Shown here: positions 18,998 to 28,895 of the stretch, piece by piece
How the letters are laid out: the number at the start of each line of letters is the position of its first letter
Numbering within the stretch: the stretch's first letter is position 1
Assembly: GCA_035501655.1 (NCBI GenBank)
Contig: DATJVU010000033.1
Coordinates: forward strand, 298,770 to 362,769
Origin: Candidatus Solibacter sp.
GTDB taxonomy: Bacteria; Acidobacteriota; Terriglobia; Terriglobales; Acidobacteriaceae
Direction of reading: 5' to 3'
Length of the DNA stretch: 64,000 bases
Program-made: the position numbers and the translations under genes
Notes under the pieces: generated by a model
Seen by the model: the letters and a program-made list of their open reading frames with translations, nothing else
Databases searched by the model: none
Told to the model about the DNA's origin: nothing

Positions 18998-19080
18998 CCA
19001 AAGCCGCGAAGCGGCAAAAGAATGCAGCCCACGGCGCAAGCCGTGGGTATGAGAAAGACAAGGAACAGCCCCGAAGGGGC
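18998..19080 (-). repeat. double-hairpin repeat (CCCACGGC..GCCGTGGG plus GCCCC..GGGGC)
   Basis: Approximate reverse complement of 50438-50524, sharing the core GGCAAAAGAATGCAGCCCACGGCGCAAGCCGTGGGT. Confidence 0.8.
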
Positions 19081-19570: not shown

Positions 19571-19654
19571 ATGTCATTCTGAACCCGCGCCAAGCGCTCA
19601 CACATGATGTCATTCCGAACGCGCGCAAAGCGCGGGTGAGGAACCTGCTTTTCC
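19571..19654 (+). repeat. composite GTCAT type-A repeat (half copy + full copy), left flank of the PD-(D/E)XK gene
   Basis: About 90% identical, by eye alignment, to the composite at 20169-20253 in the same orientation. Confidence 0.85.
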
Positions 19655-19669
19655 CCGGCGACGAATCAA

Positions 19670-20140
19670 TCACATCTTCTCCAACTCACCCCGGTCTTTC
19701 CCCAACAGCGCCCACGCCTCCCGATACCCCTCATATTTCGGACGGTTGCGCACTCCTTCAAACTGGCACAGCGTAATCGCCGACTTGCCCTTGTGCCCGG
19801 TGATGCGGTGCGCCGGAATGATGTACCACACCTCCTCCGGAATCACATACCCCACGCAAACATCCAGGTCCCCGGCGCTGTACCGCCGTATCCGCCCGCC
19901 GCTCGAGTGCGTAAACTCGCACAGATATCCCGCCCCCGACTTATAACTGGTCGACTTCACCTGCACCCGCAGCAGCCGCCCGTCTCCCTCCACCCCAACG
20001 TCGTAGGCATAGACCTCTCCCCACGGCTTGAGCACCCGATACCCATGAAACGAAGCCGCCGCCATAAACAACATCTCCACCCAGGCGCCCCGCTCCGAAA
20101 ACGACTTGAACCCAAACAACCCCCGTCTCGCTCGCCCCAT
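19670..20140 (-). CDS. PD-(D/E)XK-type endonuclease-like protein (PDDEXK_5-like)
   Basis: ORF 19670..20269 trimmed to ATG 20140 (GGAG 8 nt upstream), because the rest reads through repeats. YAYDVGVE...LLRVQVKST fits a D...(E/Q)xK nuclease core. Confidence 0.65.
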   Translation of the reverse strand: MGRARRGLFGFKSFSERGAWVEMLFMAAASFHGYRVLKPWGEVYAYDVGVEGDGRLLRVQVKSTSYKSGAGYLCEFTHSSGGRIRRYSAGDLDVCVGYVIPEEVWYIIPAHRITGHKGKSAITLCQFEGVRNRPKYEGYREAWALLGKDRGELEKM

Positions 20141-20168
20141 TTCCACTCCCCCACAGCCACCACTACCC

Positions 20169-20253
20169 GATGTCATTCCGAACCCGCGCAAAGCGTCCCA
20201 CGTGATGTCATTCCGAACCCGCGCAAAGCGCGGGTGAGGAACCTGCTTTTTCC
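20169..20253 (+). repeat. composite GTCAT type-A repeat (half copy + full copy), right flank of the PD-(D/E)XK gene
   Basis: Direct repeat of 19571-19654. Confidence 0.85.
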
Positions 20254-20265
20254 CCACCACGAAGC

Positions 20266-20299
20266 CCAAAAAGCAAAAGGCGCGACCCGTGGCCGCGCC
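20266..20299 (-). terminator. intrinsic terminator (minus strand) at the end of 175-bp repeat copy 1
   Basis: Minus-strand RNA reads GGCGCGGCC-ACG-GGTCGCGCC (9 bp, one G-U) then TTTTGCTTTTTGG. On the plus strand the same position would be an A-C mismatch. Confidence 0.7.
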
Positions 20300-20442
20300 T
20301 TCTTCGCCGAAAAATTTATCCTATATATCCAGACTAGCAAAATCAAAAGGGTAGAGTGGACATGATTGGAGACTTTATATTTCGCCCGTTTTCAACAACT
20401 TACGCCAAAAATGTATCGTCCCACCCCCTTGACAGGATTTTT
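20268..20442 (-). repeat. 175-bp direct repeat, copy 1 (unknown function, candidate ncRNA module)
   Basis: Aligns without net indels to 20609-20783 at roughly 86% identity (hand count of about 24 mismatches). Confidence 0.85.
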
Positions 20443-20606
20443 CCCATTTCGGGAATTGGGCATCACGGAACCGGGAAGGGCACGAGTTTTACTCGTGCCG
20501 AAAGAGCATCGACAACAAGAACCGGCTTTAGCCGCTGCGGGCGTGCTCACTCGCGGCAGCCCGTCAGAAAAATCGTGTAAACGTCCCGTCTGTCCCCATG
20601 TTTTCT

Positions 20607-20640
20607 TCAAAAAGCAAAAGACGCGACCTGTGGCCGCGCC
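20607..20640 (-). terminator. intrinsic terminator (minus strand) at the end of 175-bp repeat copy 2, about 180 nt downstream of the HEPN gene stop
   Basis: Minus-strand RNA reads GGCGCGGCC-ACA-GGTCGCGTC (two G-U pairs) then TTTTGCTTTTTGA. Both substitutions relative to copy 1 keep pairing only on the minus strand. Confidence 0.7.
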
Positions 20641-20783
20641 TTTTGCGCCCAAAAATTTGTCCTATATATCCAGAATAGCAAATTCAAAAGGGTAAAGTGG
20701 ACATGATTGAGAACTTTATATTTCTGGCGTTTTCAATGACTTAAGCCAAAAATGTATCGTCTGACCCCCTTGACAAAATTTTT
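20609..20783 (-). repeat. 175-bp direct repeat, copy 2
   Basis: See copy 1. Conserved blocks include CCTATATATCCAGA, AAAAGGGTA, GTGGACATGATTG, GCCAAAAATGTATCGTC and ACCCCCTTGACA (plus-strand reading). Confidence 0.85.
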
Positions 20784-20820
20784 GTCTCAGGTTGAGAAAA
20801 TGCTAACTTAGCACGCGCTT

Positions 20821-21537
20821 TCAGGCAGTGCGCGCCCGCTGTCCCCTAACACAGTACTGTCGACGATCCACGAAACGCTGGATGTTCTTCAGAATCTGTC
20901 GAATGTACAACACGACTTGGCGTTTTATCTCGATTAGAGCATCCAAAGTGAGGTCGCGCCCGCACTCCTTGAACGACTTCAACCCGTGGGCAAGATTGTT
21001 CCGTTCTTGCCGAACACGGGTTAGGTGATATCCGCCCTTGGTTGAACGGGTCGTCTGGTGCGAAAATCCATATTTCGCGGACAGCTCTCGCACACGTTCT
21101 GCATCCAGATTCCCGCTTATCGGCAACAGCTTTGAGTCGAAAAGAATGCGCTTAGAACTAATCACTAACTCAAGCATTTCGATAACGCGCTTGGCGTTGT
21201 TTTCAGGAAGGCGCATCGGGTCTGGCTTGAATTCATCATGTACCCAGAGTTCGCGGAGCTCTTGACGCAAAACCTCATACTGAACCTTATCAGCCTTAAC
21301 CGAATCGTAAATCTCGTTCAAGCCATTCCGGATCGAACTCTCGACGAGGTTATAGAGTATAAGGAGCGCATTGGCCTTAAGTATCTTGACGAGATCTTCG
21401 CTGATTGCAGCCTGCTTAGTTTTTCTGGCTCGTGGGTAGTGCAGCTTCGCGCCCTTTGCTACCACATCCGCAAGAAATGCGAAATAGACCTCTATCTCTG
21501 AGACTCTTGCTTCGTAATCCAGCAAAAGGAGGTTCAT
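20821..21537 (-). CDS. HEPN-like protein (Rx4H motif), last gene of the dcm-vsr-DUF262 operon
   Basis: 238 aa, mostly helical-looking. RQERNNLAHG contains R-N-N-L-A-H (Rx4H). Its ATG overlaps the DUF262 stop (ATGA). Confidence 0.65.
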   Translation of the reverse strand: MNLLLLDYEARVSEIEVYFAFLADVVAKGAKLHYPRARKTKQAAISEDLVKILKANALLILYNLVESSIRNGLNEIYDSVKADKVQYEVLRQELRELWVHDEFKPDPMRLPENNAKRVIEMLELVISSKRILFDSKLLPISGNLDAERVRELSAKYGFSHQTTRSTKGGYHLTRVRQERNNLAHGLKSFKECGRDLTLDALIEIKRQVVLYIRQILKNIQRFVDRRQYCVRGQRARTA

Positions 21538-22616
21538 ACGGCTGAAAGAAGCATATCGCGAACATACTCTATGCGACCCGTCAAACGTGGTGCAGAGTTA
21601 CTAGCGTGGGTGGTAACTTGATGCTGGAAGTCGCTTGAGTTTATCCACGACATGTCGCGAGGCCTCAAACTCGGATTAATCTGAAGAGCAAGATGCGTCC
21701 CAACAGCGATTGCCTCAAATCGAACACGCGGAGTCGTAGACGCGTGTTGGGTCTTTGCAAACCCGAACGGAAAGAACTTATCGACAAACAATAACATTTC
21801 GGCGAAGGAGCTCACTTTGCTCAGGCGGTCCTTCGCTGCCTCAGGGGTGCTCGTCTTGTAAAAATTGTTCTTCTCCACGACATATGCGTTCAGGAACCTA
21901 GCCACGTCGTGTTTGAATGTCTGATAACGCTCAGCGTACGCAAAAAATCGCAACACCAATTCTTGACGCTCGCCTCGCCGCGCGACGCGCTCATTTATGG
22001 GGCACAGTCGCATAAAGTCTGTTTTCCCTGCGCACTCATCGACTAGTTGATAGAACGGACCCGGATATGCGCCTTTACGCAGTTCAGCATTGCGAAGTGA
22101 GTCGCTTCCGGTATTAATTCTTTCGAAGATATCGAACTTGGAATCCGTCGTCGTGTTATCTGAAAGGACTATCATGCGTAAGGTTCGGTTCTTGAATTTT
22201 CTCTGTTGCGCCGCTGGTAAATCCGAATAGGAGACACCGTTCAACGAATTTAGGCTACCAAGACTTCGAAGGCGGAACCCATCATCCATGAAGGCACTAA
22301 GAGTTCGAATGCGCTGCGCTCCGTCTACGATCTCCAATACTCCTTCAGGGGTTTCGGCTGTAAACATGAATGGAATTGGCAGCCCAAGTATGACTGATTC
22401 TATGAAGCGTGATCTCCGCTCATCGGACCACACGAATTCGCGTTGATAGCGCGGGATCGTGAATTCACCCGCTCGAAACTTGTTTACTAACAATTCGACC
22501 GTGAATTCCTTCGTGTCGTAGTTGATAGTTCGCTGCTTTTCGGCAATTTGCTGCTCGGCGCGCGCAATCTCGGCCGCATCCATGAACAATCGTGCCTGCT
22601 TGGCGATTTGCCGCAC
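21534..22616 (-). CDS. DUF262 (ParB-like nuclease superfamily) protein without a DUF1524/HNH domain
   Basis: 360 aa. FTIPRYQREFVWSDERRSRFIESVILGLPIP and IVDGAQRIRTL (DGQQR-type motif). No His-Me finger seen in the C-terminal half. Confidence 0.85.
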   Translation of the reverse strand: MRQIAKQARLFMDAAEIARAEQQIAEKQRTINYDTKEFTVELLVNKFRAGEFTIPRYQREFVWSDERRSRFIESVILGLPIPFMFTAETPEGVLEIVDGAQRIRTLSAFMDDGFRLRSLGSLNSLNGVSYSDLPAAQQRKFKNRTLRMIVLSDNTTTDSKFDIFERINTGSDSLRNAELRKGAYPGPFYQLVDECAGKTDFMRLCPINERVARRGERQELVLRFFAYAERYQTFKHDVARFLNAYVVEKNNFYKTSTPEAAKDRLSKVSSFAEMLLFVDKFFPFGFAKTQHASTTPRVRFEAIAVGTHLALQINPSLRPRDMSWINSSDFQHQVTTHASNSAPRLTGRIEYVRDMLLSAV

Positions 22617-22621
22617 TCGCT

Positions 22622-23005
22622 TTATTCCTTATTCTTACGCTGTTTCAACATATCCATAATTATTGGGACAATCGTTTGGGGTGGTTCGTGGGCCCAGAAC
22701 CGTCGAGCTATCCAACCGTGTGCGCGCAACACCCGAAGACATCTAACATCACGTCGCCGGTTCTCCGAAAGTTTGTTAGTCCACCAGGTTCGATTTGCCT
22801 TTGGAAGGGTACCGTGATTTGGGCATCCATGCCAAAAGCAACCATCTAAGAAAACGGCAACCTTTTTTCTTGGGAACACGAAATCAGGCTGAATTCTTCG
22901 CCCAGCCAGCACTTGCACATGCATTTTGAACGAGATCCGCAAGCGCTTGAGTTCACTTGCAAGCCGGGTTTCGTTTCCTGTTCCGTATCTCCTGACGGAA
23001 AGCAT
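22622..23005 (-). CDS. vsr: very short patch repair endonuclease
   Basis: 127 aa. PDFVFPRKKVAVFLDGCFWHGC and LSENRRRD blocks typical of Vsr. Confidence 0.85.
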   Translation of the reverse strand: MLSVRRYGTGNETRLASELKRLRISFKMHVQVLAGRRIQPDFVFPRKKVAVFLDGCFWHGCPNHGTLPKANRTWWTNKLSENRRRDVRCLRVLRAHGWIARRFWAHEPPQTIVPIIMDMLKQRKNKE

Positions 23006-23043
23006 TCGTCTGGTTGCATCAAGCGATGACGAGCAAGGCCTCT

Positions 23044-24213
23044 TCAGATCGTACGCTCCTCAAATGTTCGCAAGTGTGCTTCGACAGCATCCAAGAAACC
23101 CGGAGCGAATTTGAGGCTGCTGGCTCTCGCTCGTTGAAGAAATCCAGCGGTCGCAGTATCCGACAGTGGGGTAGTTGGAAACCGTAGAAAAGTATTTAGC
23201 TCGCGGTATCGATGTCGAACGGGATATTCACTCACACGAGACGCGTACACACCGTCGCCGAGGCACCACGCAGCCGTTGGCCAACGTGCGCCGTCCTTAA
23301 GCTTCGGATCGTGCTCAGACTCATAGTGCTTTGGGTGTAAAAGACGACGACCTAGCCAAGCTGAAACTGGCACGCTAACAGCATTTCCCAGCAGGTGCCA
23401 GCGACGAGAAACACTGATTTTTCTCCTTGCGCTGGTCCATCCTGGAGGGAAGCCCTGGAGTCGTTCGGCGTCTCGTATGTTGGGGACGACTATTCCTTCG
23501 TCGCGTTGCCAAATGGCCGGTGGCGAAGCTATGCCGAATGCTGAGCCTCGTTTAAGTGGCGGGATTGCGTTTACGGCCCACCCGACTCCGGTGTTCCCTT
23601 CTGTCCAGTAAAACCCGCAAGCGGACTCCGATGGACTGATCGTGCTCTTCTCAGCATCATCAGTTAGGAGCACGCATCTGGGGTCGTGATGCCTTGACGC
23701 TAGAATGATCACCCGTCGGCGACGCTGAGGAAGTCCGAATGCCCTTGTATCCACGATGCGATAGGCCCATCGGAACCGGAGTTCCTGTAACCGACGCAGT
23801 ATCGTCCTCATCGGGCGACCTCGTTGCAGGTGCAGCATAAAGGGCACATTCTCAAGAACCAGCCACTGGGGGTCACTTTTCTTTAGAAGGCGAAAAACTT
23901 CGTTGATCAGAACCGACTGTGATCCGTCAAGTCCGGCAGTTCGTCCTGCTTGGCTCAGGTCCTGGCATGGAAACCCTGCGGTGACAACTGCGGCATCGGG
24001 CAGAGTTTTGAGAGTTCGAATGTCCGACCAGAATCGAGTCTTAGGAAAGCGCAAACGAAAAATCCTACGTGCCGCTTCATCAATCTCGCATGCAAAAGCA
24101 GTACGGAATCCTGCGCGCTCCAACCCGAGTTCCAAGCCGCCGATGCCCGCGAAAAGTGCTGCTACGGTCGGACGCTTTCCTACCGAGATATGGTGTTTGG
24201 TTTTAGTTAGCAA
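23044..24213 (-). CDS. dcm: DNA (cytosine-5)-methyltransferase
   Basis: 389 aa. Motif I LFAGIGG, IV GFPCQDLS, VI LENVP, VIII QRRRRV, X LGNAVSVP. Confidence 0.92.
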   Translation of the reverse strand: MLTKTKHHISVGKRPTVAALFAGIGGLELGLERAGFRTAFACEIDEAARRIFRLRFPKTRFWSDIRTLKTLPDAAVVTAGFPCQDLSQAGRTAGLDGSQSVLINEVFRLLKKSDPQWLVLENVPFMLHLQRGRPMRTILRRLQELRFRWAYRIVDTRAFGLPQRRRRVIILASRHHDPRCVLLTDDAEKSTISPSESACGFYWTEGNTGVGWAVNAIPPLKRGSAFGIASPPAIWQRDEGIVVPNIRDAERLQGFPPGWTSARRKISVSRRWHLLGNAVSVPVSAWLGRRLLHPKHYESEHDPKLKDGARWPTAAWCLGDGVYASRVSEYPVRHRYRELNTFLRFPTTPLSDTATAGFLQRARASSLKFAPGFLDAVEAHLRTFEERTI

Positions 24214-24393
24214 GATTATCTGTACCGTTTTCCACAGTTAAGAAGGCTTGAGCAAGTCAAGAATCTAACAGGAAAATGGCCTGAAATCACCCTCAAATGT
24301 CAAGAGGGCACTTCAATAGCACGTCTTCGAGGGTTCATCTTAGGAACAAGGGCGGGAACGCTCATACTTGTGGGCGGGGGGGAGCCGACCTTC

Positions 24394-24603
24394 GGGTTTC
24401 GATTTCACTTCCCACAACGAAAATGTGGGTGTCTCGCTCTTGCGTTTTTCAAGGGCGGGCACGATGCTGCTTGTGCCACGAGATTTCGGCGGATTCAAAA
24501 CCTTGCGCTGTCGGCGGCACTGTACCCACGTCTCGCAAATTCGGCGAGACGTGGGGCACCCACATCACTTTTGTTCTCGCGAAATCGAAGACTGGGCTGG
24601 GGC
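24394..24603 (+). repeat. about 210-bp dispersed repeat, copy 1 (TGTGGGTG..CTCTTGCGTTTTT..GGGCGGGCACGATG..GATTCAAAA..TGGGGCACCCAC..GAAATCGAAG)
   Basis: Direct repeat of 25668-25897 (which has one extra internal segment). The two bracket the CDS at 24872-25645. Confidence 0.8.
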
Positions 24604-24663
24604 TCAGCTTGCCCGCACAACGAAAGCCGCGTTGTTTGGGCCATCCGTCCTACGGCGGCGAAA

Positions 24664-24693
24664 GACGCGGGCGGGGGCGCCCGCGCCACATCT
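24664..24693 (+). repeat. REP-like hairpin GACGCGGGCG-GGGG-CGCCCGCGCCACATCT
   Basis: 30/30 identical to 26193-26222. The GCGGGCG/CGCCCGC stem is the same as in the hairpins flanking the RAYT gene. Confidence 0.85.
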
Positions 24694-24793
24694 TGCGTTC
24701 ACTTATCTGCACAGCGAGAATCGCTTGTGTAGGACACTTGTCTCCGGGCAGGATTTCTCAGCGTTTTCCACGGCATTGCAAAATCATTCAGTC

Positions 24794-24822
24794 TTGACGG
24801 TGAGCGGGGGTGAAAGAATAAT
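24794..24822 (+). promoter_or_regulatory. sigma70-like promoter candidate (TTGACG-17 nt-AATAAT)
   Basis: Hexamers at 24794-24799 and 24817-24822. Supports the downstream ATG 24872 (GAGG 8 nt upstream) as the real start. Confidence 0.35.
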
Positions 24823-24871
24823 GTCCGCGTCCAGCCTGAAACATTCCCGCTACTTCCGCGAGGTAAGAATT

Positions 24872-25645
24872 ATGCCGCAGACCCACTCATCGAAAACCGA
24901 TCCAAGCCAAACTTATTCGAGCCAGACCGATCCGAACTACGCTGATTCGAGCCAGACTTATTCGAACCAAGTCAATCCGAAGCGACACGCTTTAAGTTTG
25001 AGTGATCATTTGAACAAGCACCTGCTGGCTTATATGGCTACGGCTAGTGCGGCTGGAGTGAGCATGCTGGCGATGACTCAGCCGGCGGAGGCTACAGTTG
25101 TATATACGCCTGCGCACCGGACTATCGTTTCCGGGGCCCATCTTGATTTAAATGGCGACGGGATTCCCGACTTTACTTTTCAGGCGAATCGCTATATCTG
25201 CGGCACCTGTGGCTACTTTGACGTATTCGCCCCCAAGCCCAATCGAGTCATGAGCTACGGGAGCCCTCAGGCGGCGGGAGTGACGGTCGGACCTCCGGGC
25301 GATAACTTTAAGGGCCATGGGGGCGAGATGGTCAATTGGTGTACCTGTTCGGGAAACGGAGCCACCGGGGGCCCGTGGGTGGGAATTCAGAATGGATACA
25401 TGGGTCTGGAATTCAATATTAAAGGGACGATGCATTTTGGCTGGGCACGTTTTTCTGTGACCGACCAGGGAGCCATCACGCTGACCGGCTTTGCGTACGA
25501 GACGGTTGCGCTCAAACCCATTGTGACTGGAGATACCGGAGGCACGGAGAGCGTCGATTCGTTGGGGCCGGCGGCGGGGACAGAACTTCCACGGTTCGGA
25601 CTTGGACATCTGGCGCTTGGCGCGGTGGGGAAGTTGGGGCGGTAG
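24872..25645 (+). CDS. hypothetical secreted/anchored protein with Q/S/T-rich N-terminal repeats
   Basis: ORF 24368..25645, trimmed because the 5' part is repeat DNA. Hydrophobic LLAYMATASAAGVSMLAMTQPAEA segment. No family recognised. Confidence 0.5.
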   Translation: MPQTHSSKTDPSQTYSSQTDPNYADSSQTYSNQVNPKRHALSLSDHLNKHLLAYMATASAAGVSMLAMTQPAEATVVYTPAHRTIVSGAHLDLNGDGIPDFTFQANRYICGTCGYFDVFAPKPNRVMSYGSPQAAGVTVGPPGDNFKGHGGEMVNWCTCSGNGATGGPWVGIQNGYMGLEFNIKGTMHFGWARFSVTDQGAITLTGFAYETVALKPIVTGDTGGTESVDSLGPAAGTELPRFGLGHLALGAVGKLGR

Positions 25646-25667: not shown

Positions 25668-25897
25668 GGTTTGATTTTTCTTTCCAGTGACATATATGTG
25701 GGTGCCCCGCTCTTGCGTTTTTGGCAAGAGCCTGCCCTGAGCTTGTCGAAGGGGCGGGCACGATGATGCTTGTGGCGGTAGATTTCTGCGGATTCAAAAT
25801 CCCACGCTGTCGGCAGCACTGTTCCCAGCCTTCGCAAAAAACGCGAAGACTGGGGCACCCACTTCATCTTTGTTTCATCGAAATCGAAGGCTGGCCG
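25668..25897 (+). repeat. about 230-bp dispersed repeat, copy 2
   Basis: Direct repeat of 24394-24603. Confidence 0.8.
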
Positions 25898-26078: not shown

Positions 26079-28895
26079 ATGCCCCACGAACTCCCAAAAG
26101 CTTATGAGCCGGGCGCGATTGAAGCGCGCTGGGCTGAGTACTGGATCAAAGAGAAACTTTTTTCCGTCGCTACGCCTCCGGCTGACGCCGGGGACGCGGG
26201 CGGGGGCGCCCGCGCCACATCTGCGTCCGCACAACCTGTGTTTTCGCTGCTGCTGCCGCCGCCGAATGTGACTGGCAATCTGCATATGGGGCACATGTTC
26301 GAGCAGACACAGATGGACATTATTGTGCGCTGGCATCGGATGCGGGGATTTTTGACGTTGTGGCTTCCGGGCACCGACCATGCGGGCATTGCGACGCAAT
26401 TGATGGTGGAGCGGCAACTGGCGTCGGAAGGCAAGAAGCGCCGCGACCTGGGGCGCGAGAAATTTATTGAGCGCGTGTGGGAGTGGAAGAAGAAGTACGG
26501 CGGAAATATCACCGACCAGATGAAGCGGCTGGGCGCGTCGGTCGACTGGGATCGCGAATATTTCACGATGGATGAAAACTTGTCGCGGGCGGTGCGCGAA
26601 GTTTTTGTCCGGCTGTATGAAGAAGGGCTGATCTATCGCGGGAAGTACATCGTGAACTGGTGCCCGCGCTGCGAGACGGCGATCTCCGATCTCGAAGTGA
26701 AGCATGAGGATGTGCCGGGGAAGCTGTGGGAGATTCGTTATCCCGTGATCGGGACGCCGGCGGATAAGCCAGAGTTTATTACTGTCGCTACCACGCGGCC
26801 GGAGACGATGCTGGGCGATACGGCTATCGCGGTGAATATAAGAGACGAGCGCTACACGCATCTGCACGGCAAGAAAGTTTTGCTGCCGCTGATGGAGCGG
26901 GAGATTCCGATCATCACCGACGAACTGGCGCAGCCGGAGTTTGGCACGGGCGCGGTGAAGGTGACGCCGGCGCATGATCCCAATGACTTTCAGGCTGGAC
27001 TGCGCAACAACCTGCCGCAGATTGAAGTGATGGACGAGAACGCCCGCATGAATCAGAACGCGGGCAAGTATGCCGGGCTGGATCGCTACGAAGCTCGCAA
27101 GCAGGTGCTCGCCGATTTGGAGGCAGGGAATTTTTTAGTTGGGACGAAAGATCACACGCTGCCACTCGGCAAGTGCGATCGCTGCGCCACGGTGGTTGAG
27201 CCGCGGCTGTCGACGCAGTGGTTTATCAAGATTGCGCCCATGGCGAAACGCGCCGCCGACGCGGTCCGCAGCGGCGAGATTACTATCGCGCCAGAAAACA
27301 ATCAGCAAATTTATCTGAACTGGATGGACAACATCCACGACTGGTGCATCTCCCGCCAACTCTGGTGGGGACATCGGGTGCCGGCTTGGCATTGTGCTTG
27401 TGGGGAGATTGTGGTGGCGCGCGAGGCTCCGGCTGCGTGTGGGAAGTGCGGTGGGGCGGTGGAGCAGGATGCGGATGTGCTGGATACGTGGTTTTCTTCG
27501 GGGTTGTTGCCGTTCACTACTTTGGGGTGGCCGGAGAAGACTCGCGATCTGGAGGTTTTTTATCCGACGGCGCTGATGATTACCGGGTTTGACATTTTGT
27601 TTTTCTGGCTGGCGCGGATGATCATGTTCGGCTGCCATTTTATGCGGGGGCATGAGCAGGATCCGGCGATTAAGGCGTCTAGCGGATGGAGTGAGCGCAA
27701 GGATGACGCGGTGCCGTTTCGGCGGGTCTACATTCATGCTTTGGTGCGGGATGCGGACCGGCAGAAGATGTCGAAGACTAAGGGGAATGTGGTCGATCCG
27801 CTGGACATTATTGCTCGCTTTGGAACCGACGCGACTCGGTTTACGCTTGCGGCTATGGCTGCGCCGGGAACCGATATTGCGTTTAACGAGAGTCGCACGG
27901 ATGGGTATCGTGCTTTTGCTAACAAGATTTGGAATGCGGCGCGGTTCATGTTTATGAATGTGGACCGGATCGCGGACCGATCTCCGTGGACTCCGATTAA
28001 GGCAGATTCCGAAATCCTGCATGTTGGTGTTGGTGGTGTTAAGACGGTTGCTCTCGAAGACCGCTGGATTCTTTCGCGATTCAACCGCGTTGCAGCCGAC
28101 GTGAACGATGCGTTGGCGACTTATCGTTTTCACGAAGCGGCGAATCGCATCTACGATTTTTTCTGGGGCGAATTTTGCGACTGGTACTTAGAGTTGATCA
28201 AGCCGCGGCTTATGAACGAAGGGGGCTCTGCCAGGGCTGAAGCTAGCGTTGCGTGTTCTAATCTCGTCAACTTGTTTGAGTCATCGCTGCGCCTTCTGCA
28301 CCCGATCATGCCGTTTATTACGGAAGAAATCTGGCATGCGATGCAAGAGAATAAAACTTCAATCAAGTCCATCGCGTTGACGGCTTATCCGCAGGCCGAT
28401 GAAAAGCAATTTGATCTGGCCGCTGAGACCGAGATGGCGATTTTGCAGGATCTGATCGTGAGCGTTCGGAACTTGCGCGCGGAATTGAAAGTCGAAACCA
28501 AGGCCAAGGTGCCGATCGAAATTTTCGCACACGAGCCCGCGATTCGCAGCCTGATTGAGCAGAACCGCGGCGCGGTGGAGCGGCTAGCTAACGTTGAAAG
28601 TATCGCGTTTGCAGGGGGATCGTTGACCAGCAAGGCTGGCGCGCGCAGCACGGCGCGCTTCGACGTGCATGTAATCTATGAGCGCAAGATTGATGTTGCG
28701 GCTGAGTGCGAGCGGTTGAAGAAAGAGCTGGAGAGAATTGAGAAGGGGATGACGAACGGGCAGAAGCAGCTTAGCAACGAAGGCTTTTTGGCAAAGGCTC
28801 CGGCTGCGATTGTGGAGAACCTGCGCAAGCAGCATCAGGAGTTGGTTGTTTTGCAGGAGAAAACTTTGAGCAAGATGAAGGAGTTGGGTTGCTGA
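26079..28895 (+). CDS. valS: valine--tRNA ligase
   Basis: ORF 26064..28895. [13 protein letters not shown] (HIGH), KMSKTKGN (KMSKS) and a C-terminal coiled coil. ATG 26079 preferred. Confidence 0.97.
26193..26222 (+). repeat. REP-like hairpin embedded in frame in valS (encodes [10 protein letters not shown])
   Basis: Identical 30-mer to the intergenic 24664-24693. Lies in the variable N-terminal linker before PPPNVTG. Confidence 0.8.

Follow-up and report, generated by a model that had tools for sequence, protein, structure and literature searches.

A stretch of 64,000 nucleotides from a contig of Candidatus Solibacter sp. (DATJVU010000033.1, assembly GCA_035501655.1), hereafter the window, was analysed around a four-gene cassette that encodes a C5-cytosine DNA methyltransferase (methylase), a Vsr endonuclease, a DUF262 protein and a HEPN protein. 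The genes of the cassette, in order, are as follows:

23044-24213, minus strand: Dcm-type C5-cytosine DNA methyltransferase, 389 aa, the first gene of the cassette
22622-23005, minus strand: Vsr T:G mismatch (very-short-patch) endonuclease, N-terminally short form, 127 aa
21534-22616, minus strand: NsnA-like ParB-DUF262 protein with a helical ParBDB-type C-terminal domain, 360 aa
20821-21537, minus strand: MAE_28990-family HEPN protein, predicted RNase effector, 238 aa

All four open reading frames (ORFs) are intact and co-directional, and their coordinates confirm the layout given in the preliminary description, an earlier reading of the same DNA from its letters, with 38 nt between the Dcm and Vsr genes, 5 nt between the Vsr and DUF262 genes, and a 4-nt ATGA overlap by which the HEPN gene is translationally coupled to the DUF262 gene. 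The stretch 20270-24213 has a G+C content of 0.510, which is the lowest of any 3.9-kb stretch of the window (mean 0.582, standard deviation 0.021), and the G+C content at third codon positions (GC3) is 0.48-0.58 in the cassette compared with 0.69-0.84 in the flanking genes, so that the AT-richness earlier estimated from a few sampled lines holds for the whole block. The cassette is compositionally foreign and horizontally acquired, and it lies among housekeeping genes, with a PF03601 membrane protein, Nramp/MntH and Usp on one side and valS on the other.

The methylase was identified by PF00145 (3.9e-47; values in this form are E values), by TIGR00675 of NCBIfam (4.3e-47) and, over nearly its full length, by the PADLOC model MTase_II (PDLC03324, 4.3e-129). 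All catalytic motifs are present and the catalytic half resembles M.HhaI (2e-21), while M.HhaI and M.HaeIII, which were tried for inference of the target sequence, align to the methylase over this half only. Vsr matched PF03852 (2.1e-13, 50.3 bits vs a cut-off of 27) and scored slightly under the cut-off of TIGR00632 of NCBIfam (92.4 vs 97.85 bits), and the identities that had been assigned to both proteins from short motifs are therefore correct. The start of Vsr corresponds to the residue equivalent to Met14 of E. coli Vsr, and the catalytic Asp of PDFV and the GCFWH motif are conserved, with WAHE in place of WEC. That a Vsr is present argues for methylation of the host's own DNA.

The DUF262 protein matched GmrSD_N (PF03235, 6.6e-29) and no other Pfam domain. 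Its best model in PADLOC is NsnA of the Menshen system (3.8e-60, residues 22-308), which is also the top PADLOC model for all 34 aligned DUF262 homologues, followed at a lower score by PD-T4-2_A (PDLC04027, 9.4e-37, residues 54-272), and the model REase_II (PDLC03418, 9.4e-19) covers residues 54-197, that is, the DUF262 domain only. The motifs QR..W (QREFVW in the window), DGxQR (DGAQR) and F..R.N are invariant in the alignment, and TPRVRFE and THASNS of the C-terminal half are highly conserved. The AlphaFold model (predicted local distance difference test, pLDDT, 88.7) comprises a ParB-like α/β domain followed by an all-helical domain, and its best Foldseek match among solved structures is BrxU (7p9k, probability 1.0), with ParB/Noc CTPases next; the sequence search against solved structures gave a weak match to the N-terminal part of BrxU only (0.0039). 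A DUF1524/His-Me half was detected neither by Pfam nor in the AlphaFold model, whose C-terminal half is helical and contains no His-Me motif, and the earlier reading of this protein as a DUF262 domain lacking that half was right. DUF262 acts as a nucleoside triphosphatase (NTPase) and sensor in GmrSD, BrxU and SspE (PMC12065111; PMC10952713), and by this likeness the protein is proposed to be a DNA sensor with an NTPase domain.

HEPN domains are typically metal-independent RNases. The HEPN protein of the cassette matched PF18737 (HEPN_MAE_28990; 3.6e-23, 83.3 bits vs a cut-off of 26.8) and PF18735 (8e-8), and its RNNLAH motif corresponds to R179, N180 and H184 of RNxLAH, all three of which are invariant in 33 homologues from many phyla. 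QREFVW, DGAQR and RNNLAH, the motifs singled out in the preliminary description, all fall in family-invariant alignment columns, and the Rx4H motif is kept in nearly all of the loci surveyed below. The AlphaFold model is helical (pLDDT 88.9); Foldseek against the PDB returned no significant match (best E 0.28), so the fold was neither confirmed nor replaced, and the HEPN profile found no match among the sequences of solved structures. In PADLOC v2.0.0 no model recognises the protein at E<=1, PD-T4-2_B (PDLC04028) included, which matched one of 33 members of the HEPN family (0.0078). The family comprises 1,841 clusters at 50% identity, almost all of them stand-alone proteins of 220-250 aa. Neither the DUF262 nor the HEPN protein was matched by any NCBIfam model, and Pfam, the sequence search of the PDB and Foldseek found no restriction-endonuclease fold in either, as had been anticipated for both.

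The Dcm-Vsr-DUF262-HEPN cassette recurs in four other contigs, which contain the loci L086, L090, L002 and L001. In L086 and L090 all four genes have the lengths of those in the window or near-identical ones, with a Vsr of 127/129 aa in the same slot, and L002 and L001 show the same gene order with a Vsr ORF in the gap between Dcm and DUF262; methylase orthologues of 389-426 aa occupy the same position in all four loci. The cassette is mobile: DNA homology of the window to L086, L090 and L002 is confined to 20828-24173, the four genes, while the surroundings differ, and for this reason the four genes are taken to move as one block. A Cas1 gene directly precedes the block in L002, L086 and L090, all three on metagenomic contigs (L002 1-5198; L086 1-5196; L090 1-288), and L002 and L086 additionally carry a family-B DNA polymerase (PolB). 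The cassette may travel as cargo of casposon-like elements, and no remnant of Cas1 or PolB was found in the window. A 640-aa GHKL-type ATPase (HATPase_c_3) adjoins the cassette in the close relatives L086 (8737-10659) and L089 (1149-3065), where the two copies are about 70% identical; it may be another defence gene and has no counterpart in the window.

Gene linkage was surveyed in 83 loci with HEPN relatives, of which three were obtained through exact protein look-up and 80 from among 343 matches in species collections that hold one genome per species, where the closest match showed 41% identity; 38 loci on viral contigs formed a separate set. The DUF262 gene lies directly upstream of the HEPN gene in 82 of the 83 loci, across many phyla, with the remaining locus cut by a contig end, and in most cases the DUF262 stop overlaps or adjoins the HEPN start. 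In 45 of the 83 loci a C5 methylase is the immediate neighbour, often overlapping, either upstream and co-directional (26), downstream and convergent (16) or downstream and co-directional (3). The arrangement tracks the DUF262 tree and is clade-consistent, and the linked methylases form three sequence clusters with below about 40% identity between them. Three clade-consistent arrangements together with three methylase clusters imply that the partnership arose or was swapped several times, by repeated recruitment and not through one inherited accident. On the viral contigs the pair was present in 38/38 loci with an adjacent methylase in 36, the other two being ended by the contig (36/36 of the assessable loci).

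The trio is also found on a Klebsiella plasmid (NZ_CP069825), where RefSeq names all three proteins, and in P2_4B2, a P2-like phage of E. coli (NC_049387; L084 140-3041), with a convergent C5 methylase, a DUF262 protein 41% identical to that of the window and a MAE_28990 HEPN protein 33% identical. The methylase of P2_4B2 is annotated with 234 aa, corresponding to the N-terminal half of the family only, and may be truncated or frameshifted. Vsr was observed near the module in only 5/80 loci outside the window's own clade, and it is an accessory that occurs mainly in that clade. In eight Firmicutes loci (L011 at 1399-1695, L016, L023, L025, L026, L028, L029 and L040) the methylase is directly preceded by a 98-aa HTH_3 (Xre/Cro-type) gene, whose product resembles the controller proteins of type II systems. 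Beyond within-lineage synteny and this Firmicutes gene, clustering of 991 flanking ORFs revealed no fifth gene (ATPase, nuclease or antitoxin) common across clades. The conserved core is made up of three genes, methylase, DUF262 and HEPN; the four-gene linkage put forward in the preliminary description stands for these three, across phyla and viral contigs, but not for Vsr, and the methylase itself is missing within 7 kb in about 35 of the 80 chromosomal loci.

A C5 methylase was absent within 7 kb in 38 loci, with a profile hidden Markov model included in the search, and three of these loci lie at contig edges. Two of the contig-edge loci, L032 and L069, keep the sensor motifs of methylase-linked loci, so their methylase is probably off-contig. 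The remaining methylase-less loci belong mainly to a cyanobacterial clade, situated among housekeeping genes, and to a Bacteroidota/Verrucomicrobiota clade, with ClpB, aconitase B and MetH among the neighbours. A motif scan and 19 Pfam-checked flanking proteins gave a single methylase of another class at these pairs, an N6_N4 methylase 1.1 kb off in L004. Methylation is not obligatory for the DUF262-HEPN pair. Differential conservation was observed for the sensor: P206 ('LCPxS') and N340 ('ASNS') are 100% conserved in 44 methylase-linked sensors and were lost in two independent methylase-less lineages, and the cyanobacterial lineage has also lost P296, R299 and A302 of 'TPRVRFEA', while the NTPase motifs and the HEPN Rx4H motif are kept in the methylase-less lineages. 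Such a pattern of motif loss would be expected if sensor and methylation were functionally tied. In seven methylase-less loci of Microcoleus/Oscillatoriales (L043, L051, L058, L062, L065, L068 and L072) the DUF262 ORF is about 180 aa long next to a full-length HEPN gene with Rx4H, which may represent sensor decay or a shortened form.

The operon type was predicted by Anantharaman et al. 2013 (Biol Direct 8:15), who listed an operon of MAE_28990 HEPN, ParB and DNA methylase (PMC3710099, Table 1), and Makarova et al. 2013 saw in the combination of COG1479/DUF262 and HEPN a module that may serve cell death and is tied to DNA modification (PMC3632139). The comparative-genomic predictions mentioned in the preliminary description therefore exist, and its novelty was overstated, since the operon type was described in 2013 and all three proteins already bear RefSeq names ('MAE_28990/MAE_18760 family HEPN-like nuclease', 'DUF262 domain-containing protein' and 'DNA cytosine methyltransferase'). 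Like the operon of 2013, the cassette joins a DNA methylase to a HEPN protein of PF18737 and its ParB-type DUF262 partner in a single operon, and the Microcystis locus type is present in the survey as L056. Unlike that operon, the window's clade inserts Vsr between methylase and DUF262; an NsnA-like NTPase sensor now describes the partner better than a nuclease does, and the description of 2013 was purely computational.

Two validated E. coli defences reported by Vassallo et al. 2022 (PMC9519451) are close in composition. PD-T4-2 of ECOR65 is a two-gene DUF262 and HEPN system, validated against T4 in its native strain, whose HEPN protein was assigned by its authors' HHpred search to RiboL-PSP (97.8%) and MAE_28990 (96.9%) (PMC9519451). 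The window DUF262 protein matches PD-T4-2_A, as given above, but PD-T4-2 has no methylase, is smaller (1,540 bp for both genes) and possesses a HEPN protein whose profile, PD-T4-2_B, is not matched by that of the window. PD-λ-5 of ECOR7 joins a ParB-like domain, HEPN and a DNA methyltransferase and gives broad phage protection; its authors read it as a compacted restriction-modification (RM) and abortive-infection system, and it is the closest validated analogue of the logic proposed here, likened by composition. It differs in that ParBc, not DUF262, is fused to HEPN, the methylase is a D12-class N6-adenine enzyme and not a C5 enzyme, and Vsr is lacking. The literature search gave no mechanistic study of PD-T4-2 or PD-λ-5.

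Similarities and differences were also observed for other systems. Menshen NsnABC (Millman et al. 2022; Li et al. 2025, PMC12065111) shares the NsnA-type ParB-DUF262 and ParBDB sensor, but no NsnB ABC-ATPase stands beside the window sensor, whose Vsr and HEPN neighbours have no ATPase domain (Pfam, PADLOC), and in place of the inactive-PIN effector NsnC, for which PADLOC gave no match, HEPN lies directly downstream; the Menshen authors (Li et al. 2025) independently raised the possibility that ParB-DUF262 proteins target non-modified genomes where a methylase stands without a nuclease partner (PMC12065111). GmrSD, BrxU and SspE have in common with the cassette the DUF262 NTPase domain with QR..W, DGxQR and F..N, and they respond to modified DNA by cutting or nicking DNA, whereas the window protein has no DUF1524 His-Me nuclease and nuclease activity is predicted only for HEPN, a polypeptide of its own. 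PrrC-EcoprrI, of type Ic, likewise embeds a HEPN RNase in a DNA-modification system, the RNase being kept latent by the RM complex through its DNA-sensing partners (PMC3710099), but PrrC possesses its own ABC-type NTPase domain and a complete DNA-cutting HsdMSR, whereas the window has no DNA-cutting enzyme. Compared with type II RM systems, the layout supports the earlier statement that DUF262 and HEPN occupy the slot of the restriction gene, but neither shows a cognate endonuclease fold.

The cassette is very probably a defence module of the MAE_28990/ParB/methylase operon family. For its mode of action, a methylation-gated RNase mechanism, RM-like but without a DNA-cutting enzyme, is favoured, and its chances are rated as close to even. 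In its favour are the linkage of the pair and of its methylase, the transfer as a unit, the presence of Vsr, the Firmicutes HTH_3 gene, the motif loss, the invariant NTPase and Rx4H motifs, the lack of any nuclease fold but HEPN in the two proteins, and the precedents of GmrSD, BrxU, SspE and PrrC-EcoprrI together with the suggestion of Li et al. 2025. The C5 methyltransferase would mark the host chromosome at its target sites, and Vsr would repair the T:G mismatches that arise from deamination of 5-methylcytosine, which would limit the mutational cost. The DUF262/ParBDB protein would be the sensor of DNA that lacks the methylation of the cassette, such as that of a phage, a plasmid or the host after loss of the cassette, with HEPN as the effector held in fixed ratio to it through translational coupling. 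NTP-dependent switching of the sensor would release the HEPN RNase, which would cut cellular RNA, so that translation would stop and abortive infection or post-segregational arrest would follow; reading of the methylation state by the sensor, RNA cleavage by HEPN and an abortive outcome are the inferred parts of this scheme. The hybrid of self-protection and abortive infection put forward in the preliminary description is likewise a reasonable but inferred reading. It is possible, although somewhat short of an even chance, that the cassette represents an RM system that never cuts DNA, combining epigenetic self/non-self discrimination with an effector acting on RNA; the surface that reads methylation would then be marked by the residues lost in methylase-less lineages (P206 and N340, plus P296, R299 and A302 in cyanobacteria).

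Several observations weigh against methylation gating. The pair is kept intact in the methylase-less loci, and PD-T4-2 defends E. coli without a methylase (PMC9519451), so that the pair can stay silent and be triggered without cognate methylation. The sensor shows 50-60% identity across phyla and is far more conserved than its methylases, which is unexpected for a sequence-specific reader matched to each of them, and the correlation of motif loss with methylase absence represents only two or three independent events. Since Foldseek matched no solved HEPN structure, the HEPN call rests on the Pfam profile and the motif; the older literature names the ParB-like domain a nuclease, and the literature search returned no experimental or mechanistic study of the exact HEPN/DUF262/methylase family.

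The alternative that survives best, rated as unlikely, is that the pair represents an autonomous, PD-T4-2-like abortive-infection system whose trigger, such as a phage protein or a replication intermediate, is unrelated to methylation, with Dcm-Vsr as a separate and merely co-located passenger, kept by mobile elements as a means of evading host restriction or for its epigenetic effects. The methylase-less chromosomal pairs among housekeeping genes and the methylase-free protection by PD-T4-2 both fit this explanation, as do the frequency of solitary methylases on phages and plasmids and the high conservation of the sensor despite differing methylase partners. A passenger would however not be expected to stand immediately adjacent, often overlapping, in three gene orders and with three methylase families, to accompany the pair in every assessable viral contig, or to travel with it as one block; the correlated loss of conserved sensor residues in methylase-less lineages and the truncated DUF262 genes of several methylase-less Microcoleus loci also tell against it.

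The methylation-gated mechanism also has to be compared with a conventional RM system in which the DUF262 protein itself would be a DNase or nickase on unmethylated DNA and HEPN a second-line, PrrC-like suicide RNase, which we consider improbable. Such a reading corresponds to the 'ParB nuclease' and the multi-pronged defence that Anantharaman et al. 2013 proposed for RM-linked HEPN genes (PMC3710099), and the REase_II match would agree with it; yet GmrSD, BrxU and SspE cleave through DUF1524 (PMC10952713, PMC12065111), which was not found here, REase_II covers residues 54-197 only whereas the NsnA model scores far better and spans a larger part of the protein, and in fold the protein comes closest to ParB/Noc CTPase switches and BrxU. 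A type IV-like system, in which the sensor would recognise foreign modified DNA (hydroxymethyl- or glucosyl-cytosine) as GmrSD does and the methylase would have no part in triggering, is very improbable: a 5-methylcytosine methylase beside a modified-cytosine sensor would risk self-targeting, Vsr points to methylated host DNA, and the tight, repeated methylase linkage would be left unexplained, even though the DUF262 domain is common to GmrSD and BrxU, BrxU is the best structural match and PD-T4-2 was selected on T4, whose cytosines are modified (PMC9519451).

Three further features lie downstream of the cassette:

20604-20646, minus strand: first strong terminator-like hairpin 3' of the HEPN gene, a 15-pair stem followed by a T-run
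19670-20269, minus strand: PD-(D/E)XK protein (PF11645 PDDEXK_5, 9.6e-14), 551 nt downstream of HEPN
19002-19047, minus strand: Acido-Lenti-1 small RNA (RF01687), 47.5 bits vs a gathering score of 37, just upstream of the Usp gene

A reading in which the PDDEXK_5 protein would be the restriction endonuclease cognate to Dcm, and the locus an ordinary type II system plus two additional genes, is hardly credible and was rejected, because, for all that the protein is encoded on the same strand and close by, it has no homologue in any of the 83 related loci, homology with related cassettes stops at 20828, its GC3 of 0.75 is host-like against 0.48-0.58 in the cassette, two strong terminators separate it from the cassette, dispersed 68-nt repeats flank it and PADLOC labels it 'homing endonuclease'. 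The statement in the preliminary description that the module contains no recognisable restriction endonuclease holds for the cassette, but the description omitted this neighbouring gene.

If the methylation-gated model is true, the self-marking of an RM system is wired to an RNA-targeting abortive-infection effector in three genes, as has been proposed since 2013. The family of about 1,800 clusters at 50% identity extends over Acidobacteriota, Cyanobacteria, Firmicutes, Proteobacteria and Planctomycetota, and its carriers include phages, plasmids and casposon-like elements. Since PADLOC v2.0.0 has no model that recognises the HEPN protein, defence censuses based on these models probably do not report the pair as a system. 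The homologues on the P2-like phage (NC_049387) and the Klebsiella plasmid (NZ_CP069825) are tractable experimental models. The window locus adds a further member to an operon family that is already known and was defined computationally, and what is new here are the survey numbers for the pair and its methylase, the exact boundaries of the mobile block, the casposon-like carriage in relatives and the sensor-motif differences between methylase-linked and methylase-less loci.

The 68-nt direct repeats bracket the PDDEXK_5 gene (19598-19665 and 20196-20263), with a third copy at 1482-1534, about 18 kb away, and contain a GCGCGCAAAGCGCGGG palindrome. The annotated N-terminus of the PDDEXK_5 ORF is translated repeat sequence, so its true start probably lies at a more internal position. 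The low-GC stretch that separates this gene from the HEPN stop contains a 176-nt direct repeat in two copies, which are 88% identical, at 20267-20442 and 20608-20783 (341 nt start to start), each ending in a strong minus-strand terminator hairpin of 13-15 pairs and a T-run. Rfam gave no match for the repeat, and neither the related loci nor the rest of the window contain a further copy; a role as an RNA antitoxin or as part of the module was considered and is not supported, the repeat being absent from every related locus. The hairpin at 20604-20646, which sits within the copy at 20608-20783, is the probable terminator of the operon, and it is not common to related cassettes because DNA homology stops at 20828.

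The Acido-Lenti-1 small RNA and the nearest homologues are consistent with an Acidobacteriota origin of the window. Repeats were also observed on the valS side of the cassette. A 143-nt direct repeat, 78% identical between 24453-24595 and 25752-25894, brackets a dcm-valS region with no Pfam-recognisable gene. An exact 30-nt repeat occurs at 24664-24693, unannotated and upstream of dcm, and at 26193-26222, in the N-terminal part of the valS frame, where it codes for part of a peptide in an apparent N-terminal insertion. In the ORF at 24368-25645, a 15-nt periodic repeat (24899-24981) encodes SQT(Y/D)-rich peptide repeats.

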